From: Pyrobaculum sp. 3827-6
GTDB lineage: Archaea; Thermoproteota; Thermoprotei; Thermoproteales; Thermoproteaceae
NCBI RefSeq assembly: GCF_025641885.1
Contig: NZ_JAOTQN010000001.1
Coordinates: 1,200,547 to 1,264,546 of the forward strand
DNA length: 64,000 nucleotides
Direction: 5' to 3'
The notes beneath the pieces are model-generated. The model saw only the letters and a list, made by a program, of their open reading frames with translations, was not told where the DNA came from and made no database searches. Below are positions 3,839 to 64,000 of this stretch, piece by piece. Both the position numbers and the translations under genes were made by a program. Position 1 is the first letter of the stretch. Every line of letters begins with the position of its first letter.

Positions 3839-4333
3839 CTATATTTCTTTAGCGGATTTGCCCAGCGCCTTTAGTAAAACCAGTGTTATGTAAAGCCCCC
3901 TCCTTACCTCGGCATCATTTAGAAGAGATATAAGTGTACGTATAGATATTTTCTTGTCTTCCTTAGCCTCAACAAGTGCTTTTTCTAACTCTGGATCTGC
4001 TAATGCCCTGCCGATTACCTCTACTAGCGATGTTCTTGTCAAACCGTCAATCAAAAGGCCGAGGGGTCTTATTACATTTTTGGCAAGTTCATCTACCATT
4101 CTGTCAGTAACTACATCATGTAACATAGCAATAGTGGCGAGAAGCTCTACTACGTGATCCAATACGCCGGATCTCACTAGGTATTCAGCGGCTCCCCATA
4201 GTTGTTGCTCGACAACCTCTCTAGGCACTGTAGGCATGGATTTTCCTGAGGGCGTAGCTACTATTCTGTCTACGGCAAGCCACTTGCGCCGGATCTCCTC
4301 GGACAGATACTCTTTCACCTGCGTTTCTGTCAT
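3839..4333 (-). CDS. DUF1641-like protein coupled to the flavoprotein oxidoreductase
   Basis: ATGA start/stop overlap with the upstream flavoprotein gene at 4330-4333. The 165-aa helical protein resembles DUF1641 proteins, which commonly follow SQR/NDH-II-type flavoproteins. This is a recalled association, not a search result. Confidence 0.45.
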   Translation of the reverse strand: MTETQVKEYLSEEIRRKWLAVDRIVATPSGKSMPTVPREVVEQQLWGAAEYLVRSGVLDHVVELLATIAMLHDVVTDRMVDELAKNVIRPLGLLIDGLTRTSLVEVIGRALADPELEKALVEAKEDKKISIRTLISLLNDAEVRRGLYITLVLLKALGKSAKEI

Positions 4334-5520
4334 ATTAACCCTCTGAGTGTAAGCGGTATAGAGAGGTAGTACATCCTTATTAAATACCAGCCCCATCTAT
4401 TGCCTATAAACGGCCTTGCGTTTTTTACATATGTCCACCAGGGCATCCACGCCGCGCCTTTCTCAGCTGGGGAATACACAGCACCTAGATAGGGACAGAT
4501 AGTCTCGCCGTAAAAGATCCACTTATCGCCGTGGCCCTTAATTTCGCTAGCAATGTTGTGAGAAACCACAATTGCCTCATAGTGCGCCACCGAGCCGGCT
4601 CTGGTAACGCCAATGTCGGCGACATCGCCTACGATAAACACATCGTCGTAATGTTCTTTCCCCTTTCTGTACGTCAGATTATATCTATCGCCCGGTACTA
4701 AATTAAAGGGATTCCCTATGCCGGAGTCCCCTATGACTCGAGGCCCTCGATGTGGAGGTACTGTTATAAGTAAGTCGTATTTTATCTTTTCACCTTTAGT
4801 AGATATCAATACCTTGTTTTTAGCATCTACTCGCTCTGGCTCAAATTCGTAGATGTACTCCATGCCTCGGATTTTTAACATTTCTTCCAGTACTTTATTG
4901 ACCTCAGGCTGGGCGTGTAGGTGGTCTTGCGTAGTCGCCACAATTATCTTGTACCTCCCCTTCAGCATCCTTACATTGCTTAGATATGAATCTATCAAAA
5001 GAGGCGCCTTGCCGGAGGTTATTGGACATTTCATTGATACGTCAAGCATTGCTAAAAGCTGTACTATTGTGCCGCCTGTGAATTCTTGTAGTAGTTTTCT
5101 TACTTCCTTAGCGCCTTCGAAGGTATAGTAAGTATGATAATCGTCAAGGAGACCCGGCACCAGCGACGGCTCGTAGGAACACCCAAGAGCTATGACCAAA
5201 TAATCGTATGTATAGCTCTTCCCCTTTGCCGTAGTAATTGTCCGGTTTTTTAAATCTATTTTGACTACATTACCTTCATCTCCTAAAAAGGCTTTAATTT
5301 TAGGATCAAGTATTTTAGTTTTATCATATATAAGATCTTCCTCATCATATGCCCCAGCTATATACGGCACAAATGCTGCTTCAAAATAATAAGTTTTTGA
5401 TTTGTCGAAAATCATTAACTCAACCTCCCCTTTTACAATTTCTCTGCGCAAATCTCTGGCTAAGCTATTTGCAACTATCATTCCACCAGTCCCTGCCCCA
5501 AGGACAATAATTTTTTTCAT
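4330..5520 (-). CDS. FAD-dependent pyridine nucleotide-disulfide oxidoreductase (sulfide:quinone oxidoreductase / NDH-II-like)
   Basis: N-terminal Rossmann fold MKKIIVLGAGTGGMIVANSLA and a second dinucleotide motif (VATTQD..) in a 396-aa protein. It lies between dsrC and dsrAB. Confidence 0.8.
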   Translation of the reverse strand: MKKIIVLGAGTGGMIVANSLARDLRREIVKGEVELMIFDKSKTYYFEAAFVPYIAGAYDEEDLIYDKTKILDPKIKAFLGDEGNVVKIDLKNRTITTAKGKSYTYDYLVIALGCSYEPSLVPGLLDDYHTYYTFEGAKEVRKLLQEFTGGTIVQLLAMLDVSMKCPITSGKAPLLIDSYLSNVRMLKGRYKIIVATTQDHLHAQPEVNKVLEEMLKIRGMEYIYEFEPERVDAKNKVLISTKGEKIKYDLLITVPPHRGPRVIGDSGIGNPFNLVPGDRYNLTYRKGKEHYDDVFIVGDVADIGVTRAGSVAHYEAIVVSHNIASEIKGHGDKWIFYGETICPYLGAVYSPAEKGAAWMPWWTYVKNARPFIGNRWGWYLIRMYYLSIPLTLRGLI

Positions 5521-12361: not shown

Positions 12362-12996
12362 GCCCCGGGGCGGGTAGCAACATCTTTTTTAGATACGCCG
12401 AGTGCCTCACAACGAATACGTGGATTTTCCCGTCTTTCTCGGTTTTTATGGGGGCGCCCCTGAATTTTTTGAGAGCCTCGTGCAGCGGCGAGCCGGCCAG
12501 TTGCGGTGGATATTCCACACTGTATAAAGCGATATCCTTATCGGCCAGCGGCTCGAAGAACAGCTCTTTCAAAAACTCATCTCCATTATATCAGTTACTA
12601 TCTTAGGAATCCTAAGATCATTTAATGTTTGTTTCAACTCTCTGATACCCCTTGCGCCCAAGATCGAATAATATCTAGCGGCCCCATACGTCAAGGGGCG
12701 AATAACTACGTATAAAATTTTTCGGCACTGCACGTTACCTTTATGCTCTCTGGGCGTCTCGGGGATACGGAGATGCTGGGCGTAAGCGGCACCGTAATGC
12801 GCATGGGCAACGCACTTGGAGGACCACCGCCGCGCCCTCCCAGATACGTATTGAGGACATCGACACATATCGGAGCCCTCACAAGGGCGGGACCGGCCTC
12901 GACCAGACCGTGCGTAGGAACTCACTCCTTTTGATTCAGTGATGCCGACTCGCCCTGGAGACTCGAACGTCTTCTTCCATCTTCTCTCGATACTTT

Positions 12997-38370: not shown

Positions 38371-38832
38371 GTGGCAGTCACCATATCTCCCCCCGTGGCC
38401 GAGGTGCTGAAAAAAGCGGCAGGAGATAAAGATCTGGAGGAGTTCCTACTCACACTAGTCGCAGAGCGGCTCGATCCGCCAGAGCGCGTCGAGGCTTACC
38501 TCAAGCTTCATGAGAAGTTTTTGAGGGAGGCTGAGGAGCTGTATCAAAAGGGCGACTTGGTGCAGGCTGGTGAGAAGTACTGGGGCGCCGTAGCCGCTTT
38601 GCTAAACGCATTGGCGGAGAAGCGGGGCTGGGAGCACCACAGCCACAGAGACTACGCAGTCGCGGTAGAGAGGCTGTACGAAGAGACAAGAGACAGAGAG
38701 CTGGTGGTGGGGTTTAGAATGGCCGAGGGCCTCCACGCAAACTACTACCACAACTTCATGAGAAGAGAGGGGTTTGAACTGCACAGAGAGGCCGTATTGA
38801 AGCTTGTGGAGAAGCTGAAGAAATTCCTATAA
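38371..38832 (+). CDS. PaREP1-family protein
   Basis: GEKYWGAVAALLNALAEKRGWEHHSHRDYAVAVERLYEE...MAEGLHANYYHNFM is paralogous to 14066..14551. Confidence 0.65.
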   Translation: MAVTISPPVAEVLKKAAGDKDLEEFLLTLVAERLDPPERVEAYLKLHEKFLREAEELYQKGDLVQAGEKYWGAVAALLNALAEKRGWEHHSHRDYAVAVERLYEETRDRELVVGFRMAEGLHANYYHNFMRREGFELHREAVLKLVEKLKKFL

Positions 38833-38889
38833 AACGCCGCCGAGACCGACGGCGCGGTTAATTTTAAATATGGATACACGAGATACCAC

Positions 38890-39570
38890 ATGTATATAGA
38901 CTTGACGATGGAGCTGGGCCCCGACACGCCTGTCTTCCTCGGCTACCCCAAGCCGGCTTTCATCCAGTGGTCCAAGATAGACCTCCACGGCTACTACTCC
39001 CGCGTGATGTACACGCCAGAGCACTCAGCCACACACGTCGACTCCCCCGCCCACTTCGTGCCGGGGGCGAGGACAGTGGACCAGATACCCCCCGAGAAGT
39101 TCATCGGCGCCTTCGTCGCACTCGACTTCTCCGACCTGCCCCCCAGAGGCCAGATAACGCTGAGGGCATTCGAGGCCAGACTCCCCCGCGGCGCCGACCT
39201 CGGCCCCGGCGCCGTGGTCCTCCTCCGGACGGGGTACGACGCCTACGCCGGGACAGACCGCTGGCTGGAGCACCCCGACATATCGCCAGAGCTGGCTGAG
39301 CACCTAGCCAAGCTAGGCATAAACGCCGTGGGGACAGACGCCCCCTCCCCAGACCACGCCCCCTTCGAAATACACAAAATACTCCTCGCGAGGGAGGTTT
39401 TGATATACGAAAACCTCACAAACCTCGCCGCCGTCGTCGGCAAGAGAGGCCGCTTCTACGGCCTACCCCTAGTGCTATCCCCACACCCCATCTTCATTTT
39501 TCCTGACTCGACGTCGGATGTTTTTCCTGATTCAGGAAGATTGTCTGATTTTAACTCAGGTAAAATGTAG
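38890..39570 (+). CDS. Cyclase-family protein (arylformamidase/kynurenine formamidase-like); C-terminus fused into IS hairpin sequence
   Basis: PF04199-like motifs (HSATHVDSPAHF, LLRTGYD, GTDAPSPD). The last ~28 codons (PHPIFIFPDSTSDVFPDSGRLSDFNSGKM) are encoded by the IS terminal hairpin repeat. Confidence 0.7.
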   Translation: MYIDLTMELGPDTPVFLGYPKPAFIQWSKIDLHGYYSRVMYTPEHSATHVDSPAHFVPGARTVDQIPPEKFIGAFVALDFSDLPPRGQITLRAFEARLPRGADLGPGAVVLLRTGYDAYAGTDRWLEHPDISPELAEHLAKLGINAVGTDAPSPDHAPFEIHKILLAREVLIYENLTNLAAVVGKRGRFYGLPLVLSPHPIFIFPDSTSDVFPDSGRLSDFNSGKM

Positions 39571-40716
39571 ATGGGAGGGTTGAAAGTCGTGTTGGGAAAA
39601 AAGGGGGATTATTTCCCGGTACCTCTTCTGTGCCCAATGTATCGGCACATCGTCACGGTTGGCCTCAAAGCCGCACTGACATTTCACCCTTCTGTTCGGA
39701 AGCTCCTCCATCTTTGCTCCGCATCTGGGGCAAATGGTGGAGTACAGCCTCAGCTCTGCGTAGGGCACCCCGTACCACTCGGCAAGCTCCCTCAGCCTCT
39801 TCACAAGCCTCCCCACATTGAGATACTTCTTGACGTTTGACTTTACCCTATCGCCTTTCTTCAGCCCCCGTATAGATTCGTCTATGGGCTCGTCCACTAC
39901 GACGGCGGCTTTGTACTGCATAGCGAGCTTCACGATCTTCTTTGCCGCCTCTATTGTCCATTGCCTCCACAGCCGCCAGAGGCGGCTCTTGGCCTCTGTT
40001 GCCTTTTTGCAGTAGGCGCCGCCTTTTGTGGTACATAGGGAGTCCAGCCTGGCGATCTCCCTCTCCAAGCGGCCGATGCGGCCGAGATCAGGCCTCAAGA
40101 TGCCCTTCTGCAACACCTTATCTTCCTCTATGGTGGCTATCACTATGCCGTTGTGGAGGGCGTTGACGTCGACTACGAGAAGCCTCTTGGGCTGGTATGG
40201 CGTAATTTCTCTGTGGAACACAAGCACCACGTTGAAAGTGGCGATGTTGCTGTCCCGCCGCCTGCCTACCCACGCCAGGGCGAATTTCAGCTGGGCGCTC
40301 TCCTTCACCCTTTCTTCAATCCACTTGATCTCAGACTTCCTCAGCTTAATCACGATGGTGTTGCCTCTCTCGCCGCTCCACTTCCTGATTCTAACCTCCC
40401 TCTCTGACAGATCTACAAGGACGCCGCGGCTGTTGTCGCCCGCGTTTTTATCAAGCCTCAGCTCTGCGTTGAAAGGAAGCGGCACCCTCCACACGCCATT
40501 CTTAAGCCCATTCGCGGGCAAGAGCTTCAACGCATGTTTCAACTCAGTGGCGAAGTACTTCAGTGGATTCTGCTGTGGGAGCGGTGCTTTGAATCCGCTC
40601 TTGTACCACTCCGTTGCCCACTCCTGGAACTTCTGTTGCACCTCTAGGAATTTGGTCAGCTGATGCGGCGGTATTTCTTCCACTCTCCTCTTTATTACCA
40701 GCGTTCGGTAGCCCAT
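39556..40716 (-). CDS. tnpB: TnpB (IS605 OrfB) RNA-guided nuclease-like transposon protein
   Basis: 386 aa with a RuvC-like split nuclease domain and a C-terminal zinc finger CPRCG...CQCG, which is typical TnpB architecture. Confidence 0.85.
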   Translation of the reverse strand: MGYRTLVIKRRVEEIPPHQLTKFLEVQQKFQEWATEWYKSGFKAPLPQQNPLKYFATELKHALKLLPANGLKNGVWRVPLPFNAELRLDKNAGDNSRGVLVDLSEREVRIRKWSGERGNTIVIKLRKSEIKWIEERVKESAQLKFALAWVGRRRDSNIATFNVVLVFHREITPYQPKRLLVVDVNALHNGIVIATIEEDKVLQKGILRPDLGRIGRLEREIARLDSLCTTKGGAYCKKATEAKSRLWRLWRQWTIEAAKKIVKLAMQYKAAVVVDEPIDESIRGLKKGDRVKSNVKKYLNVGRLVKRLRELAEWYGVPYAELRLYSTICPRCGAKMEELPNRRVKCQCGFEANRDDVPIHWAQKRYREIIPLFSQHDFQPSHLHFT

Positions 40717-40768
40717 GTCCCGCTATGCACACCTCCACACGTGGAAGTGACGCCCCACCGTTGTTACC

Positions 40769-41248
40769 TCAGCCAGGGGGCGGCTTGTCTGCATGCACAG
40801 CGGCTAAGTGGTTTTCCGAGCAACCGCCGCATAGCGCCTCTGCCTGAAGCGTAGAGGTGCTGGCTGGTGAAGCGCCTACAAACTTGGCGTATTTCGCCAT
40901 GGTCACCGGCTCCTCCACCGGCTTGTCCTGGCTCCTGGCCCTGGGGGGGAGGGGAGGCTTCCTCGGCTCTGCGGAGGGCCTCCTTCTGTTGAGCGGGGGC
41001 TTGAAGACCGCGTGGAGCCACGCCTCCCACATCTCGGCGAGACGCCTCCTCCGCGTGTAGGCCAAGATGATGAAGACGTCGGCCCTAAGCCCCCTCCTCG
41101 CCGCCGAGGAGCGCCCCCGGAGGTGCATGTAGACCCGGTCGTAGTAGCCGCGGCGCTTCCCCACCCCCACATACGCCACACGCCCACCCGCCAGCACCAA
41201 GTAGGCGTAGTGGACAGCCCCCACGAATACATCGGAATTTAAAGCCAA
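40769..41248 (-). CDS. Possible GIY-YIG nuclease-domain protein in the tnpA position of the IS (tentative)
   Basis: The N-terminal ~90 aa fit GIY-YIG spacing: YAY-x9-YVGVG-x~12-R..H (VHYAYLVLAGGRVAYVGVGKRRGYYDRVYMH), then E (AEMWEAW). The C-terminal half is low-complexity. No HuH/Y1 transposase motifs. The region is GC-rich with many alternative ORFs. Confidence 0.3.
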   Translation of the reverse strand: MALNSDVFVGAVHYAYLVLAGGRVAYVGVGKRRGYYDRVYMHLRGRSSAARRGLRADVFIILAYTRRRRLAEMWEAWLHAVFKPPLNRRRPSAEPRKPPLPPRARSQDKPVEEPVTMAKYAKFVGASPASTSTLQAEALCGGCSENHLAAVHADKPPPG

Positions 41249-41399
41249 CTACGGCTTTCCACTCCCCCATATACGTTTTTCCTGACTTGACATCGGACGT
41301 TCTGCCTGATTCAGGAAAAACGTCTGACGTTGAGTCAGGAAGAATGTAGATGGAGTGTTGCGCCGCCTCGGCATAATTTTGAACTGTCCGCACGCCATA

Positions 41400-41760
41400 A
41401 CAGTTGAAAGAGAGGGATGCCGAAGCCAGTTCCAAATCTAAAGATTTGGAATTGGTGAAGACGGAATGGGCGAAGCTTGACGTACGCCGATCGTTAATTC
41501 ATAAATTGGGGATGTGTTTATGCGCACATGGGCAAGCTGGCGCCCGCCCCGCCTCCCGCGAGGGCACCGGGAGGCGCCGTTGCGTCCAATACGCTCCGCC
41601 GAAGGGGCGGCGTTATTCCTCCGGGCGGCCCCGCCCCGGAAGTCCGCAAGGACGATCCGGGGCCCCGTGCCCCCCGGGACGCCCGGAGAGTAGAAAGGGG
41701 GTATACCCCTCAAGCTAACACAGGGAAGCGGCGCACCCGTAAGGGCAATCGTGGAGATAA
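41400..41760. repeat. GC-rich repeat element copy A (candidate structured ncRNA or mobile-element terminus), homologous to 63560..63840
   Basis: Shared blocks with copy B: AGTTGAAAGA..GCCAGTTCCAAATCTAA (hairpin), CGTT.ATTCAT.AAAT.GGGGA, CGCTCCGCCGAAGGGG.GGCGTTA..CTCC.GGCGGCCCCGCCC, GAGAGTAGAAA.GGGG. Some stems differ in sequence but keep their pairing, e.g. CCCGG...CCGGG versus GGCCGAG...CTCGGGCC. Confidence 0.5.
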
Positions 41761-41809
41761 CGCCGGCATAGCCACCGGGTGATTTAAATACAGGCCACCA
41801 TCCGCTCCC

Positions 41810-43204
41810 GTGGCCGGCACGAGGATACTTGCCGCCGTCAGCGGCGCCGTGGCGCTCGCCGCCTCCCTCATCTACACACTTACAGTAACCAGGAGGCTCC
41901 CCACCCAAGACCTCGCCCTGCTCACCCTCTACAACTCCGCCTACGCCGTCGCCACCGCCGTCGTGGGCTACGCAACCACGTGGTACCCACGGGTGCTAGC
42001 AAAGGACCCGAGCCGCCTCCCCGAGCTAGCCGCCGCCGGCATCCTAGTCGCCCTCGCCGCCGCCATCCCCCTAGCCGCCTACCTCGCCCTATACGGGAGG
42101 CTAGACCCCGTACTCCTCGCCCTTGGTGCAACCTCGCTGGTGCTGTTTGCGTGGCCCGCCGGCGCCTACATAGCGGTTTACAGACAGAGGCTGAGCGTAG
42201 CGGCTAATTTCGCAAGTCAGCTGGTCAAGATCGGCGGTGCCTACGCCGTGAGGCAGAGCCCCACTGCGTATGTGGCTATCGCCGTCACGGCGCTGATGCT
42301 ACTACCCGCCGCAGTGGCTAAGAGAGCTAAGCCAAATTTTAGAAGAGCTATCCCGACAGTCGTGGCTTTTCTGAGAGGCGCGCCCTACCAGACCCTGTTC
42401 TTGGCGACCACCGCGGCGGGCGGCCTCGTTACGTACGCCATCCTCTTGGCAGGCGGCGACAAGTTGCTTTCCTACAACTTCATACTCTTTCAAATCAGCA
42501 AATCGGTGTACCCAGCCCTCGCCATTGTGCCGCTTATGTACGGCTCGCTACTCACAGAAAAAGACAAGACGAGGCGGGCGTTGATAGACGGCGCCGTCCT
42601 CCTCTACCTCTACCTCCTCGCCGCCGCTGTTATGGCAAAAACCCCCCAGTGGTACATAGCCCTACTCAGACCCACAGAGCTAAACAGCGAACTCATAGAG
42701 GCTGTGAGGCTAAACGCGGCCGCCCTTGTAGCATCAGGCATATATCTCCATGCAGACACAACACTCAAAGGCCTCACAGAGAAAGAAATATTTTCACTAA
42801 AAGATCCACCTGCAAAAGCCTTACTCTTAGACCTAGTCACCGCACCCATCAACACAGCCCTCACCTACGCCCTTGCTAAATCCCTAGGAGCCCCCGGCAT
42901 GGTACTAGCCCAGCTCATAATTTTAGCCACAATCGCCTCATATAGAATACAACTTCTAGGTGTACATGCTAAACAACTCATAACACAACTTTACCTCCCC
43001 TCCGCCATAACGCTTATAGCTATCTACCTAACCCCGATGCCACTCTTCCCATTTGCCTCTAAAAACCTTATAGATACCATAACAACATACATTCCCAACC
43101 TAGTCATTTTAGCCCTAGTAGCTGGAGGATACATGTTAGCCCTCTCTAGATCAGCTCGAGAAGCCGCCACAACGCTATTGAGAAAAGCCACACGCCAAAT
43201 TTAA
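41810..43204 (+). CDS. Polysaccharide/oligosaccharide flippase (Wzx/MOP superfamily)
   Basis: 464 aa, ~12-14 TM helices, first gene of the glycan cluster. Confidence 0.7.
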   Translation: MAGTRILAAVSGAVALAASLIYTLTVTRRLPTQDLALLTLYNSAYAVATAVVGYATTWYPRVLAKDPSRLPELAAAGILVALAAAIPLAAYLALYGRLDPVLLALGATSLVLFAWPAGAYIAVYRQRLSVAANFASQLVKIGGAYAVRQSPTAYVAIAVTALMLLPAAVAKRAKPNFRRAIPTVVAFLRGAPYQTLFLATTAAGGLVTYAILLAGGDKLLSYNFILFQISKSVYPALAIVPLMYGSLLTEKDKTRRALIDGAVLLYLYLLAAAVMAKTPQWYIALLRPTELNSELIEAVRLNAAALVASGIYLHADTTLKGLTEKEIFSLKDPPAKALLLDLVTAPINTALTYALAKSLGAPGMVLAQLIILATIASYRIQLLGVHAKQLITQLYLPSAITLIAIYLTPMPLFPFASKNLIDTITTYIPNLVILALVAGGYMLALSRSAREAATTLLRKATRQI

Positions 43205-60667: not shown

Positions 60668-61089
60668 CAGATTCCTATATAATAACATTCCATAAAATGA
60701 GAACAATAATGGTAAGCCACAACACGAGCCGCGTTTCAGAACGCTCCGACCGAGCCAAGCACAAAAAAGGAGAAAAAACCACAGCCTAGCCCGAAGTGCT
60801 CCGATACCCATGAGAAAATTACGTACCGTCAACTCCTTGCACCACCACCCTCCCACGGCCAGCGGATCAGACCCGAGGCTTACGCAACTAACTTGTCTCT
60901 AAAAATCCCCAGCGCGAAGCCGCCCCCTCCAACGCCCCCCGGGCGGCCCCTCCCCTTGGCGCCTTCGGCGCCTCGGGGCCCCGTGACCCCCGAGACGCCC
61001 GGAGAGCAGAAGGGGACATTCTGCTCAGCGCAGAGCCGCGTTGCCAGAGGGCCGGGGCTTAGTGAAAAATTTATAAATATTTGTGGAGA

Positions 61090-63286: not shown

Positions 63287-63559
63287 GGCGCGGTTGCTCT
63301 TATCCTCTGTAAGAAGGGGACAAACCCAGTTCTTTAAGTCGGAGAGGTGGTCAGCAACTTTCTCTCCTACGCGTATGCGCCCAAGCTGACATTCCGCCGC
63401 CGGGCGCCCCTACAGCTGTTGATCTCGGTAGCCCGACTCACAGCGCGGCTTTCGATATTCTACTTGAAGTTAAAATCGGACATTCCCTGAATCAGGTATA
63501 ACATCTAATGCTCCGCATGGCGTCGCCAAACGCGTAATCTAGAACTGCCTACCCACTAG

Positions 63560-63840
63560 GGGAGTTGAAAGAATGAGGCGCCGGGGCCAGTTCCAAATCT
63601 AACTTAGAACTGGTTAAGGCGAGTTCGGCGCATGCCTGTCGTTTATTCATTAAATAGGGGGACGTGTTCATAGGCATACGGACAGATATGTACCTGCCGC
63701 CCCCCGGGGGGCTTCGGGAGGCGATAACGCCCCCGAACCGCTCCGCCGAAGGGGTGGCGTTAACCCTCCAGGCGGCCCCGCCCGGCCGAGAGATAGCTCG
63801 GGCCCCTGCCCCTGAGACGCTTTGAGAGTAGAAATGGGGC
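63560..63840. repeat. GC-rich repeat element copy B (homolog of 41400..41760), preceded by a solo IS-end-like hairpin at 63465-63500
   Basis: Block-wise homology to copy A (see that entry). About 70 nt upstream, AAAATCGGACATTCCCTGAATCAGG resembles the IS subterminal hairpin CATCGGACGTTCTGCCTGATTCAGG at 41290-41315. Confidence 0.5.
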
Positions 63841-64000
63841 ATCTGGTAGCTTCAGCGGGGTCTTAAACGCCAAGTGCTCCTCAAACAGCCAGCTGGTGAT
63901 GGGGTGCGCCCCCCAGGCGCCCAGCGCCGAGGCGGCTAGGTCGGGGTCGTTGGTGACCCAGCTGAGCGCCACGTAGCTCTTGTTGACGTCTATGCCGAGC

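Follow-up and report, generated by a model that had tools for sequence, protein, structure and literature searches.

A putative TnpB-only IS200/IS605-type element with long internal palindromes and a GIY-YIG nuclease gene at a cyclase locus of Pyrobaculum

Introduction

TnpB elements are the ancestors of Cas12, and to our knowledge their life cycle is understood only where TnpB is partnered by a Y1 transposase or a serine recombinase. In this work we describe a tnpB gene from a 64,000-nucleotide stretch of Pyrobaculum sp. 3827-6 (contig NZ_JAOTQN010000001.1; hereafter the window, with all coordinates counted from its first letter), at a locus where a small gene for a putative GIY-YIG nuclease takes the position usual for tnpA and both genes lie between two long palindromes, A and B. 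The best explanation that we can offer for the locus as a whole, and one that we hold with somewhat more belief than doubt, is the insertion of a 2.23-2.24-kb, Thermoproteaceae-specific, TnpB-only element of the IS200/IS605 type (IS, insertion sequence) into the last ~20 codons of a cyclase gene.

The closest described systems are the IS1341-type elements, which carry only tnpB and give rise to a 3' omega or sot RNA (ISDra2 TnpB; the sotRNAs of Halobacterium, PMC4615843; PMC8612924). Their TnpB proteins resemble that of the window in their RuvC-like residues and zinc finger. The likeness extends to the lack of a transposase gene of the element's own, to solo non-coding derivatives, and to non-coding DNA, conserved and structured, up to the right boundary; palindromes near the ends and related motifs at the left side and at the right end are probably shared as well. 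Unlike these elements, that of the window has very long palindromes (~90-108 nt), the right one lying 350 nt inside the boundary; its candidate omega RNA is split from tnpB by a palindrome and has an apparent promoter box of its own; a GIY-YIG gene is placed between the left palindrome and tnpB; and the core is found in either orientation relative to the ends. The autonomous IS605 and IS607 elements (tnpA plus tnpB) share with it the two-gene arrangement, in which an enzyme gene lies upstream of tnpB and is often lost or decayed, but there the enzyme is a Y1 HUH transposase or a serine recombinase. A broad survey of TnpB and Cas12 lists Y1, serine, tyrosine, DDE and Cas1-like partners, together with rare cargo that includes a WhiA/meganuclease-like protein, and leaves GIY-YIG unmentioned (PMC10691335).

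A second comparison is with the free-standing GIY-YIG endonucleases such as I-TevI and the Seg proteins of phage T4, which likewise consist of a small N-terminal domain bearing Y, Y, R, H and E residues, a linker and a short C-terminus. As with free-standing homing endonucleases of this family, the gene of the window is lodged between the genes of a multi-copy mobile context, is patchy and decaying, and has mosaic surroundings; unlike I-TevI and Seg, it is archaeal, IS-borne and always found beside a ~100-nt palindrome. The only mobile element in the literature searched that combines a TnpB-family protein with GIY-YIG is the Mariner element PGv-1 of a giant virus with a eukaryotic host, which carries Fanzor1 and a GIY-YIG open reading frame (ORF; PMC3627910). 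It differs from the window element in being eukaryotic/viral, in having a DDE Mariner transposase, and in that its 291-aa GIY-YIG protein is unrelated. Full-text literature searches gave no paper that pairs GIY-YIG with a prokaryotic TnpB, and GIY-YIG as a prokaryotic TnpB partner is unreported in the literature searched. The features of the element that we regard as new are the long internal palindromes, the uncoupled omega-RNA candidate, the nested GIY-YIG gene and the inverted core of this copy.

Results

Extent of the element and the empty site

The boundaries of the element are fixed by a metagenome contig (L128), retrieved by scanning metagenome contigs with the cyclase protein, in which the cyclase gene is uninterrupted. 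Positions 1-847 of this contig align with 38624-39470 of the window (94% identity) and positions 841-895 with 41704-41758 (85% match), leaving 2233 bp (39471-41703) that are present in the window and not in the contig, or a stretch reaching to 41710 if one copy of the sequence TACCCCT is counted. This heptamer stands at both junctions, positions 841-847 of the contig aligning to both copies, and the empty site reads ..CCTACCCCT up to the point of insertion and CAAGCTGGCACAGG.. beyond it. An earlier account of the window, made from its letters and ORFs (the sequence-only reading), had proposed an insertion into the 3' end of the cyclase gene, which the empty site bears out. It had also taken the hairpins on either side of tnpB as the boundaries of a mobile unit at 39497-41354; that interval proves to be only the core, as the inserted DNA overshoots palindrome A by 16 nt and palindrome B by 350 nt. 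The distance on the left is as expected for IS200/IS605 elements. Given that the boundaries do not fall at the palindromes, the whole element would have been moved by machinery that recognises its outer ends, for which a Y1 TnpA in trans would be the simplest choice. Read from the left, the inserted DNA begins with 16 nt of left end and palindrome A, continues with tnpB and then the GIY-YIG gene on the minus strand, and closes with palindrome B and a 350-nt tail (Table 1); a short GGGG-GTATA-CCCC hairpin lies at the extreme right end.

Table 1. Features of the element and of the interrupted cyclase gene (window coordinates)
Feature	Coordinates	Strand	Basis or remark
Cyclase (arylformamidase-like) gene body up to the insertion point	38890..39470	+	Pfam Cyclase PF04199, E 3e-32
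Left TACCCCT copy	39464..39470	+	directly adjoins the element; possibly a target motif of TAM type, or one half of a duplication of 7 bp
Left end outside the palindrome, AGTGCTATCCCCACAC	39471..39486	+	empty site
Palindrome A	39487..39575	.	arms 39487-39530 and 39532-39575, 73% complementary; overlaps the final 20 nt of tnpB
tnpB, 386 aa, PaREP12-type TnpB	39556..40716	-	Pfam, NCBIfam, residue conservation, dN/dS
GIY-YIG nuclease gene (putative), 151 aa	40769..41224	-	start is the GTG at which homologues begin; open frame to 41248 (159 aa)
Palindrome B	41267..41353	.	arms 41267-41309 and 41311-41353, 79% complementary
Conserved non-coding tail	41355..41703	+	here on the GIY-YIG side; follows the tnpB-side palindrome in four other copies
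AT-rich box TTAATTCATAAATT	41494..41507	+	conserved in tail alignments
GC-rich structured 3' domain of the tail, candidate omega-RNA scaffold	41590..41705	+	covariance model; ends at the element boundary
Right TACCCCT copy	41704..41710	+	may be the element's terminal motif or a duplicate of the target
Displaced native cyclase 3' end (..KLTQGSGAPVRAIVEITPA, then stop)	41711..41771	+	match to contig L128; reading frame derived from sequence

The cyclase ORF (38890..39570) now runs into the element, which contributes 32 codons and the stop codon. That the element supplies the last codons of this gene had been anticipated, at an estimate of about 28. The question of what was replaced at the C-terminus is answered by the same contig: its native protein ends in ..GLPLKLAQGSGAPVRAIAEIIS, and in the window this native end survives, displaced to the far side of the insertion.

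TnpB and the GIY-YIG gene

The intact 386-aa TnpB with RuvC-like domain and zinc finger, as first described from the sequence, is supported both by database matches and by residue conservation. The protein matches Pfam PF07282 (Cas12f1-like TNB zinc-finger domain) at 32.1 bits (cut-off 26.3), NCBIfam guided_TnpB weakly (E 1.2e-7, below that model's cut-off) and, again weakly, a PHROGs transposase family; an NCBI entry for the same strain, named 'RNA-guided endonuclease InsQ/TnpB family protein', has an identical sequence (100%), and relatives in P. ferrireducens are annotated PaREP12. Further copies in the source genome are P0005, P0010, P0124 and P0129. Across 16 TnpB homologues (51-83% identity), residues D183, D275 and D355 and cysteines C329, C332, C346 and C348 are invariant, and with its RuvC-like acidic residues and zinc-finger cysteines thus preserved the protein looks catalytically competent. 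The ratio of nonsynonymous to synonymous substitution rates (dN/dS) for tnpB is 0.17-0.21 against four other copies. Neither a phmmer search of the PDB nor a search of viral contigs found a relative. The ORFs of the element other than tnpB have no Pfam match, in keeping with the earlier remark that no HuH Y1 transposase was seen and with the classification as TnpB-only.

The GIY-YIG gene stands in the tnpA position, on the strand of tnpB and 52 nt upstream of it. In its product a conserved 85-aa GIY-YIG domain at the N-terminus is joined through a Pro/Arg-rich linker to a short C-terminal region. All 19 homologues come from Pyrobaculum or Thermoproteus, three of them labelled 'GIY-YIG domain-containing' in UniRef. 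Conserved across them is the series HYAYL..AYVGVG..DRVYMH..AEMWEAW (then ..PP; the first motif is also given as HYxYL), which in a joint alignment falls on Y6, Y17, R27, H31 and E75 of I-TevI; the Asn position is not conserved. The gene is 74% identical to its P. ferrireducens copy (E 3e-65), and its dN/dS values (0.23-0.35 over its full length, 0.17-0.34 within the N-terminal domain) indicate a selected protein-coding gene. Two of the five TnpB-linked copies (P0133, P0134) are frameshifted, with tnpB intact beside them.

A search with family profiles, which the sequence-only reading had suggested for this ORF, gave no direct match and succeeded transitively. The Pfam model PF01541 matches five of the 19 close homologues weakly (best E 0.031). 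A profile of the N-terminal 84 aa returned 22 matches from 1.84 billion representative proteins, with distant relatives at E 1e-12 to 1e-5; the distant relatives P0151, P0147, P0154 and P0153, found by the GIY domain profile at E 8.6e-8 to 9e-5, reach 31.5, 25.6, 23.3 and 23.0 bits on PF01541 (cut-off 22.6), and two more fall just under. On this transitive homology and on motif conservation we assign the small ORF to the GIY-YIG family. The alternative that it is what remains of a decayed gene, or an ORF that arose by chance in GC-rich sequence, could draw on the want of any direct match in Pfam, NCBIfam or PHROGs and on the apparent absence of an annotation in the source genome, the homologue search having returned no 100% match. 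It is refuted for practical purposes by the 19 homologues with kept motifs, by purifying selection, the N-terminal domain included, and by the transitive link above the PF01541 cut-off together with the UniRef labels. The ORF noticed as GIY-YIG-like is a genuine gene.

Two further observations concern the same gene. A protein-pattern scan of genome contigs with the GIY-YIG alignment confirmed no locus, and a TTTAAA box upstream of the start was rejected as a promoter, as it stands only ~14-19 nt from the GTG; with this box too close, no promoter is called for the GIY-tnpB pair.

Other copies and the inverted core

The same parts occur at four further loci: two in P. ferrireducens (L001 and L126), one on a metagenome contig (L147) and one on a contig of a metagenome-assembled genome, or MAG (L148; GCA_049971835.1, JBMFKV010000137.1). 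The window, L001, L126 and L147 have different genes next to the unit, which indicates that it is mobile; L148 shares its right flank with the window and ~200 bp of left flank with L126. In all four the order is palindrome, GIY-YIG gene, tnpB, palindrome and 350-nt tail, running in one direction throughout, and a C-rich box TTTTCCCCC..CCC resembling the left end of the window element is seen by eye in other copies ahead of the left palindrome. The window differs in that the tail lies on the GIY-YIG side, on the strand opposite tnpB, and the left-end box lies beside the tnpB 3' end. The position of the tail, taken with outer ends fixed by the empty site, indicates that the segment between the palindrome centres is inverted in the window copy. 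Since the palindromes are inverted repeats of one another, recombination between them would yield exactly this inverted core.

The MAG copy is informative in another respect. The half of its right palindrome, its tail and its right flank (4497-5142), including the cyclase 3' fragment, are 95-97% identical to 41257-41901 of the window, which makes the junction orthologous. Its GIY-tnpB core is 80% identical to that of the window and in the canonical orientation, and its left flank differs from that of the window and resembles that of L126. The switch in identity falls, by eye, inside the outer arm of the right palindrome. Such a mosaic would be explained either by cassette exchange or rearrangement through recombination at the palindromes, or by a chimeric MAG contig.

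The second of these options has a counterpart for the window itself, namely that the inverted core is an assembly artefact of two ~100-nt palindromic repeats and L148 likewise a chimeric MAG assembly. The bounding repeats do match in both orientations, and L148 is a 5-kb contig whose halves resemble different loci. Yet palindromes A and B share only 81% identity, which makes reads that span them distinguishable, both outer junctions fit a single clean insertion relative to the empty-site contig, and in T. uzoniensis, too, the tail is on the GIY-YIG side; we consider an artefact very improbable.

Near the full element of L126, ~650 nt upstream, positions 4101-4249 hold an extra palindrome and what appear to be the first ~50 nt of a reversed GIY-YIG gene, probably the remnant of another copy. 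A 460-aa ORF upstream in L147 and a 438-aa ORF in L149 were checked as partner nucleases and discarded.

Palindromes

Long palindromic repeats on both sides of the tnpB core had been noticed in the sequence and are real by three measures. A repeat finder aligns 39486-39574 with 41265-41353 in direct orientation (89 nt, 81%) and 39483-39590 with 41251-41358 in inverted orientation (108 nt, 81%); a motif of 16 nt from the arms is present four times where chance predicts 0.1; and folding as single-stranded DNA gives z-scores of -3.1 and -6.9. Both imperfect palindromes have the centre CCTGATTCAGG. The tnpB stop codon (39556-39558) falls within palindrome A, so the 3' end of tnpB is indeed embedded in the lower-coordinate hairpin. 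The direct orientation of the two repeats had been cited in favour of an IS608-type mechanism; because each repeat is itself a palindrome, and the direct and inverted alignments are equally good, direct orientation is undefined here and cannot serve as such an argument. Scanned over genome contigs, a 16-nt palindrome pattern with 14 specified bases gave only chance matches in unrelated bacteria.

The tail as a candidate omega RNA

The tail is retained in all five full copies and ends at the boundary. Its identity to 41355-41703 of the window is 97% in L148, 83% in a T. uzoniensis locus (L122), 82% in L001, 77% in L147 and 68% in L126. The AT-rich box may be an archaeal promoter of an RNA downstream, and the GC-rich domain that follows ends in ..GGAGAGTAGAAAGGGGGTATACCCCT at the element boundary. 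A covariance model (R1) built on the last 116 nt of the tail scores 120.9 bits at 41590..41705, finds eight other copies, and gives 75-121 bits for all full copies. Over nine tail sequences pairing holds in 91% of cells, and of 25 pairs 8 have both partners changed, values reached in 0 of 500 shuffles, while slid controls give at most four two-sided pairs; as the alignment was fitted to the model, this covariation is supportive rather than conclusive. One hairpin of variable sequence is capped by GCAA in one copy and UUCG in another. With ~72% G+C in the tail, z-scores of minimum free energy are unremarkable and uninformative, and the claim of structure rests on covariation. Rfam searches of the palindromes and the tail, at gathering and permissive thresholds, gave only meaningless miRNA-like matches to the hairpins, Pfam searches of ORFs across the tail gave no match, and a search for the tail motif in viral contigs gave no copy and one chance match.

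As the tail follows tnpB in four of the five copies and ends at the flank, it is a natural candidate for the omega RNA, with a guide that would run from 41711 onwards. The sequence-only reading had predicted this RNA elsewhere, at roughly 39480-39620 on the minus strand, from the tnpB 3' end through palindrome A into the flank, and on that prediction the tail would be an unrelated non-coding RNA, mobile or functional on its own account, that happens to adjoin a palindrome. The overlap of tnpB with palindrome A is what one would look for, since TnpB omega RNAs usually overlap the tnpB 3' end (PMC10055086; PMC4615843), and tails without TnpB are found at three places in the window and in L122. 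In the canonical copies, however, the tnpB-side palindrome continues into the constant tail and not into flank, so that the guide would be constant element sequence; in the window a mere 16 nt of element separate palindrome A from cyclase DNA; and the insertion boundary is reached by the tail and not by the palindrome. We therefore think an omega RNA at 39480-39620 unlikely and regard the tail on the plus strand as the better candidate.

Four tail-type sequences are present in the window, three of them solo. At 63457-63843 (plus strand) a half palindrome (63457-63505) and a tail-like motif (63563-63839, 68% by blast; 92 bits with R1 at 63736-63843) lie without adjoining tnpB or GIY-YIG gene, and this unit looks like a gene-less derivative of the type known as palindrome-associated transposable elements (PATEs), or like a remnant of an element. 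At 60913-61022 (plus strand) the 3' domain of the tail stands alone (52 bits, 90% identity over 42 nt), its hairpin capped by UUCG. At 12731-12850 (minus strand), directly after the end of a thioredoxin-reductase-like ORF, there is a degenerate, lower-GC tail-like sequence (25.5 bits, E 3e-4), whose similarity extends, by eye, as far as ~12960. All three may derive from the ends of the element with loss of its genes, and in this they resemble PATEs, the non-autonomous IS200/IS605 derivatives (PMC3119063; PMC10055086); unlike PATEs, two of the three are fragments.

Target motif

In the IS605 family the TAM, which adjoins the left end, and the TEM, at the right end, are alike except at two positions, and no target duplication is made (PMC10055086). 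The TACCCCT copies at both junctions, known from one empty site, fit either a TAM/TEM pair or a 7-bp duplication. A TA..CCCC-like motif is seen by eye to the left of the left end in L126, L148 and L147, not in L001, and at several tail ends as well. No comparable duplication was seen in three other copies, whose exact ends are uncertain.

The GIY-YIG gene in other settings

The GIY-YIG gene also occurs away from TnpB. In T. uzoniensis (L122) and P. ferrireducens (L123, with contigs L124 and L125) it lies directly downstream of a related palindrome and is followed, within 12-31 nt, by a gene of 437-468 aa with a LAGLIDADG fold that is unrelated to TnpB; a member of the latter family, 43% identical, occurs without GIY-YIG gene, palindrome or tail. 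The gene thus appears to be an optional, decaying passenger that travels with the palindrome and precedes two different 'homing' nucleases. Patchy presence, decay and two partner nucleases fit a free-standing, homing-endonuclease-like gene better than an essential transposase.

The opposite proposal is that the GIY-YIG protein replaces TnpA, cutting both long palindromes to excise and insert the cassette, which would make the element autonomous and of a new type. Several points speak for it: the gene occupies the tnpA position just upstream of tnpB on the same strand, a palindrome always precedes it, it is under purifying selection, no other transposase is found among the ORFs inside the element, and the cassette between the palindromes behaves as a unit, as its inversion suggests. 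The frequent decay that leaves TnpB-only copies also mirrors the loss of TnpA in IS605 elements (PMC10691335). The empty site counts on the other side, since DNA inserted to 16 nt and 350 nt past the palindromes means that these are not the ends of what was transposed. GIY-LAGLIDADG units, moreover, have one palindrome only, and both TnpB and LAGLIDADG relatives exist without the GIY-YIG gene. Strand transfer is not known to us from any GIY-YIG enzyme, which counts against the proposal as well. We judge the replacement of TnpA unlikely, and a GIY-YIG protein cutting at the palindromes a less likely mover than a Y1 TnpA in trans. A broader variant, which we hold to be doubtful but slightly less so, would see palindrome and GIY-YIG gene together as a new archaeal mobility module, whose nuclease recognises or cleaves the ~100-nt palindromes as hairpin or cruciform DNA and so moves, flips and exchanges nuclease cassettes. 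If true, it would define two-nuclease selfish elements (with TnpB plus omega RNA, or with LAGLIDADG) whose mover is not a Y1, serine, tyrosine or DDE enzyme.

Neighbouring and related loci

The T. uzoniensis locus (L122) holds a complete tail (4359-4700, reverse strand) and a first palindrome (4709-4817), followed after 70 nt by a second, near-perfect palindrome of 120 nt (4888-5008) that precedes the GIY-YIG gene; either two palindrome-bearing units abut here or one has inserted beside the other. At a locus with a P. aerophilum-type TnpB (L127, 58% identical), a left-end palindrome of different sequence, 107 nt long and also made up of CCTGA motifs, stands directly upstream with no GIY-YIG gene, and downstream of tnpB three tandem ~27-nt GTTCAAC/GTTGAAAG repeats replace the palindrome and the GC-rich tail (L127 164-270 and 1510-1613 are the regions noted). 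Directly upstream of the cyclase gene in the window is a gene of the PaREP1 family (38371-38832, plus strand). PaREP1 genes are also found within 2.5 kb of TnpB elements at L001 (9495-9989) and L127 (1731-2174), a proximity that may be coincidence in the repeat-rich genomes of Pyrobaculum.

Discussion

The account that we favour combines these observations as follows. The whole element would move by IS200/IS605 chemistry, with a Y1 transposase encoded elsewhere acting in trans, and would insert next to a TA..CCCC motif that resembles its own right-end motif, in the manner of the TAM and TEM of IS605. The tail would encode the omega RNA from its own AT-rich promoter box, the guide being supplied by the flanking cyclase 3' end (the first 16-20 nt from 41711), and TnpB would cut the empty site (TACCCCT, then CAAGCT...) and so drive re-copying of the element. 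The GIY-YIG gene, on this proposal, would be a selfish nuclease gene nested in the element, of the kind seen in free-standing homing endonucleases, and would travel with a long palindrome. DNA breaks within the palindromes or close to them would favour exchange of the cassette between copies of the element, by gene conversion and recombination; the inverted core, the mosaic identity and the often decayed GIY-YIG gene would be explained in this way. The signs of homing, namely patchy presence at TnpB and LAGLIDADG loci, decay in two of five cases and mosaic identity, are indirect, and the role of the gene as a nested selfish nuclease is one that we infer.

Several observations weigh against this account. 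No Y1 HUH transposase was found by Pfam among the ORFs in 39471-41710, no search having been made outside the element. The omega-RNA role of the tail is a putative one, and the tail also adjoins a GIY-LAGLIDADG unit without TnpB in L122, besides the three solo tails of the window. For the GIY-YIG protein, the want of a direct family match is joined by a profile search of the PDB and an hhalign comparison with I-TevI alone, neither of them significant, and by a poor AlphaFold2 model built with 19 close homologues (predicted local distance difference test, pLDDT, 44; predicted template-modelling score, pTM, 0.27); the order of secondary structure in this low-confidence model is compatible with the GIY-YIG fold, and the model is too poor for a fold search. 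The protein is connected with the palindromes by position only. The junctions may reflect duplication of 7 bp of target, an outcome foreign to IS200/IS605 elements. If, on the other hand, the TAM is exactly TACCCCT, the same motif would precede the guide match in the occupied site, and TnpB would have to distinguish the two sites by bases further upstream.

A conserved GIY-YIG gene under selection in the tnpA position, tied to unusually long palindromes and met also ahead of a LAGLIDADG-fold gene, suggests one of two things: a parasite within a parasite, in which a homing endonuclease spreads among IS copies, or a new means of mobilising TnpB cassettes. Both options are testable with two small hyperthermophile proteins and short DNA substrates. 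The locus also supplies all the parts that a test of TnpB biochemistry would call for, namely the site in its occupied and in its natural empty form, TACCCCT as the candidate TAM, and candidates for the guide and for an omega RNA physically uncoupled from tnpB.

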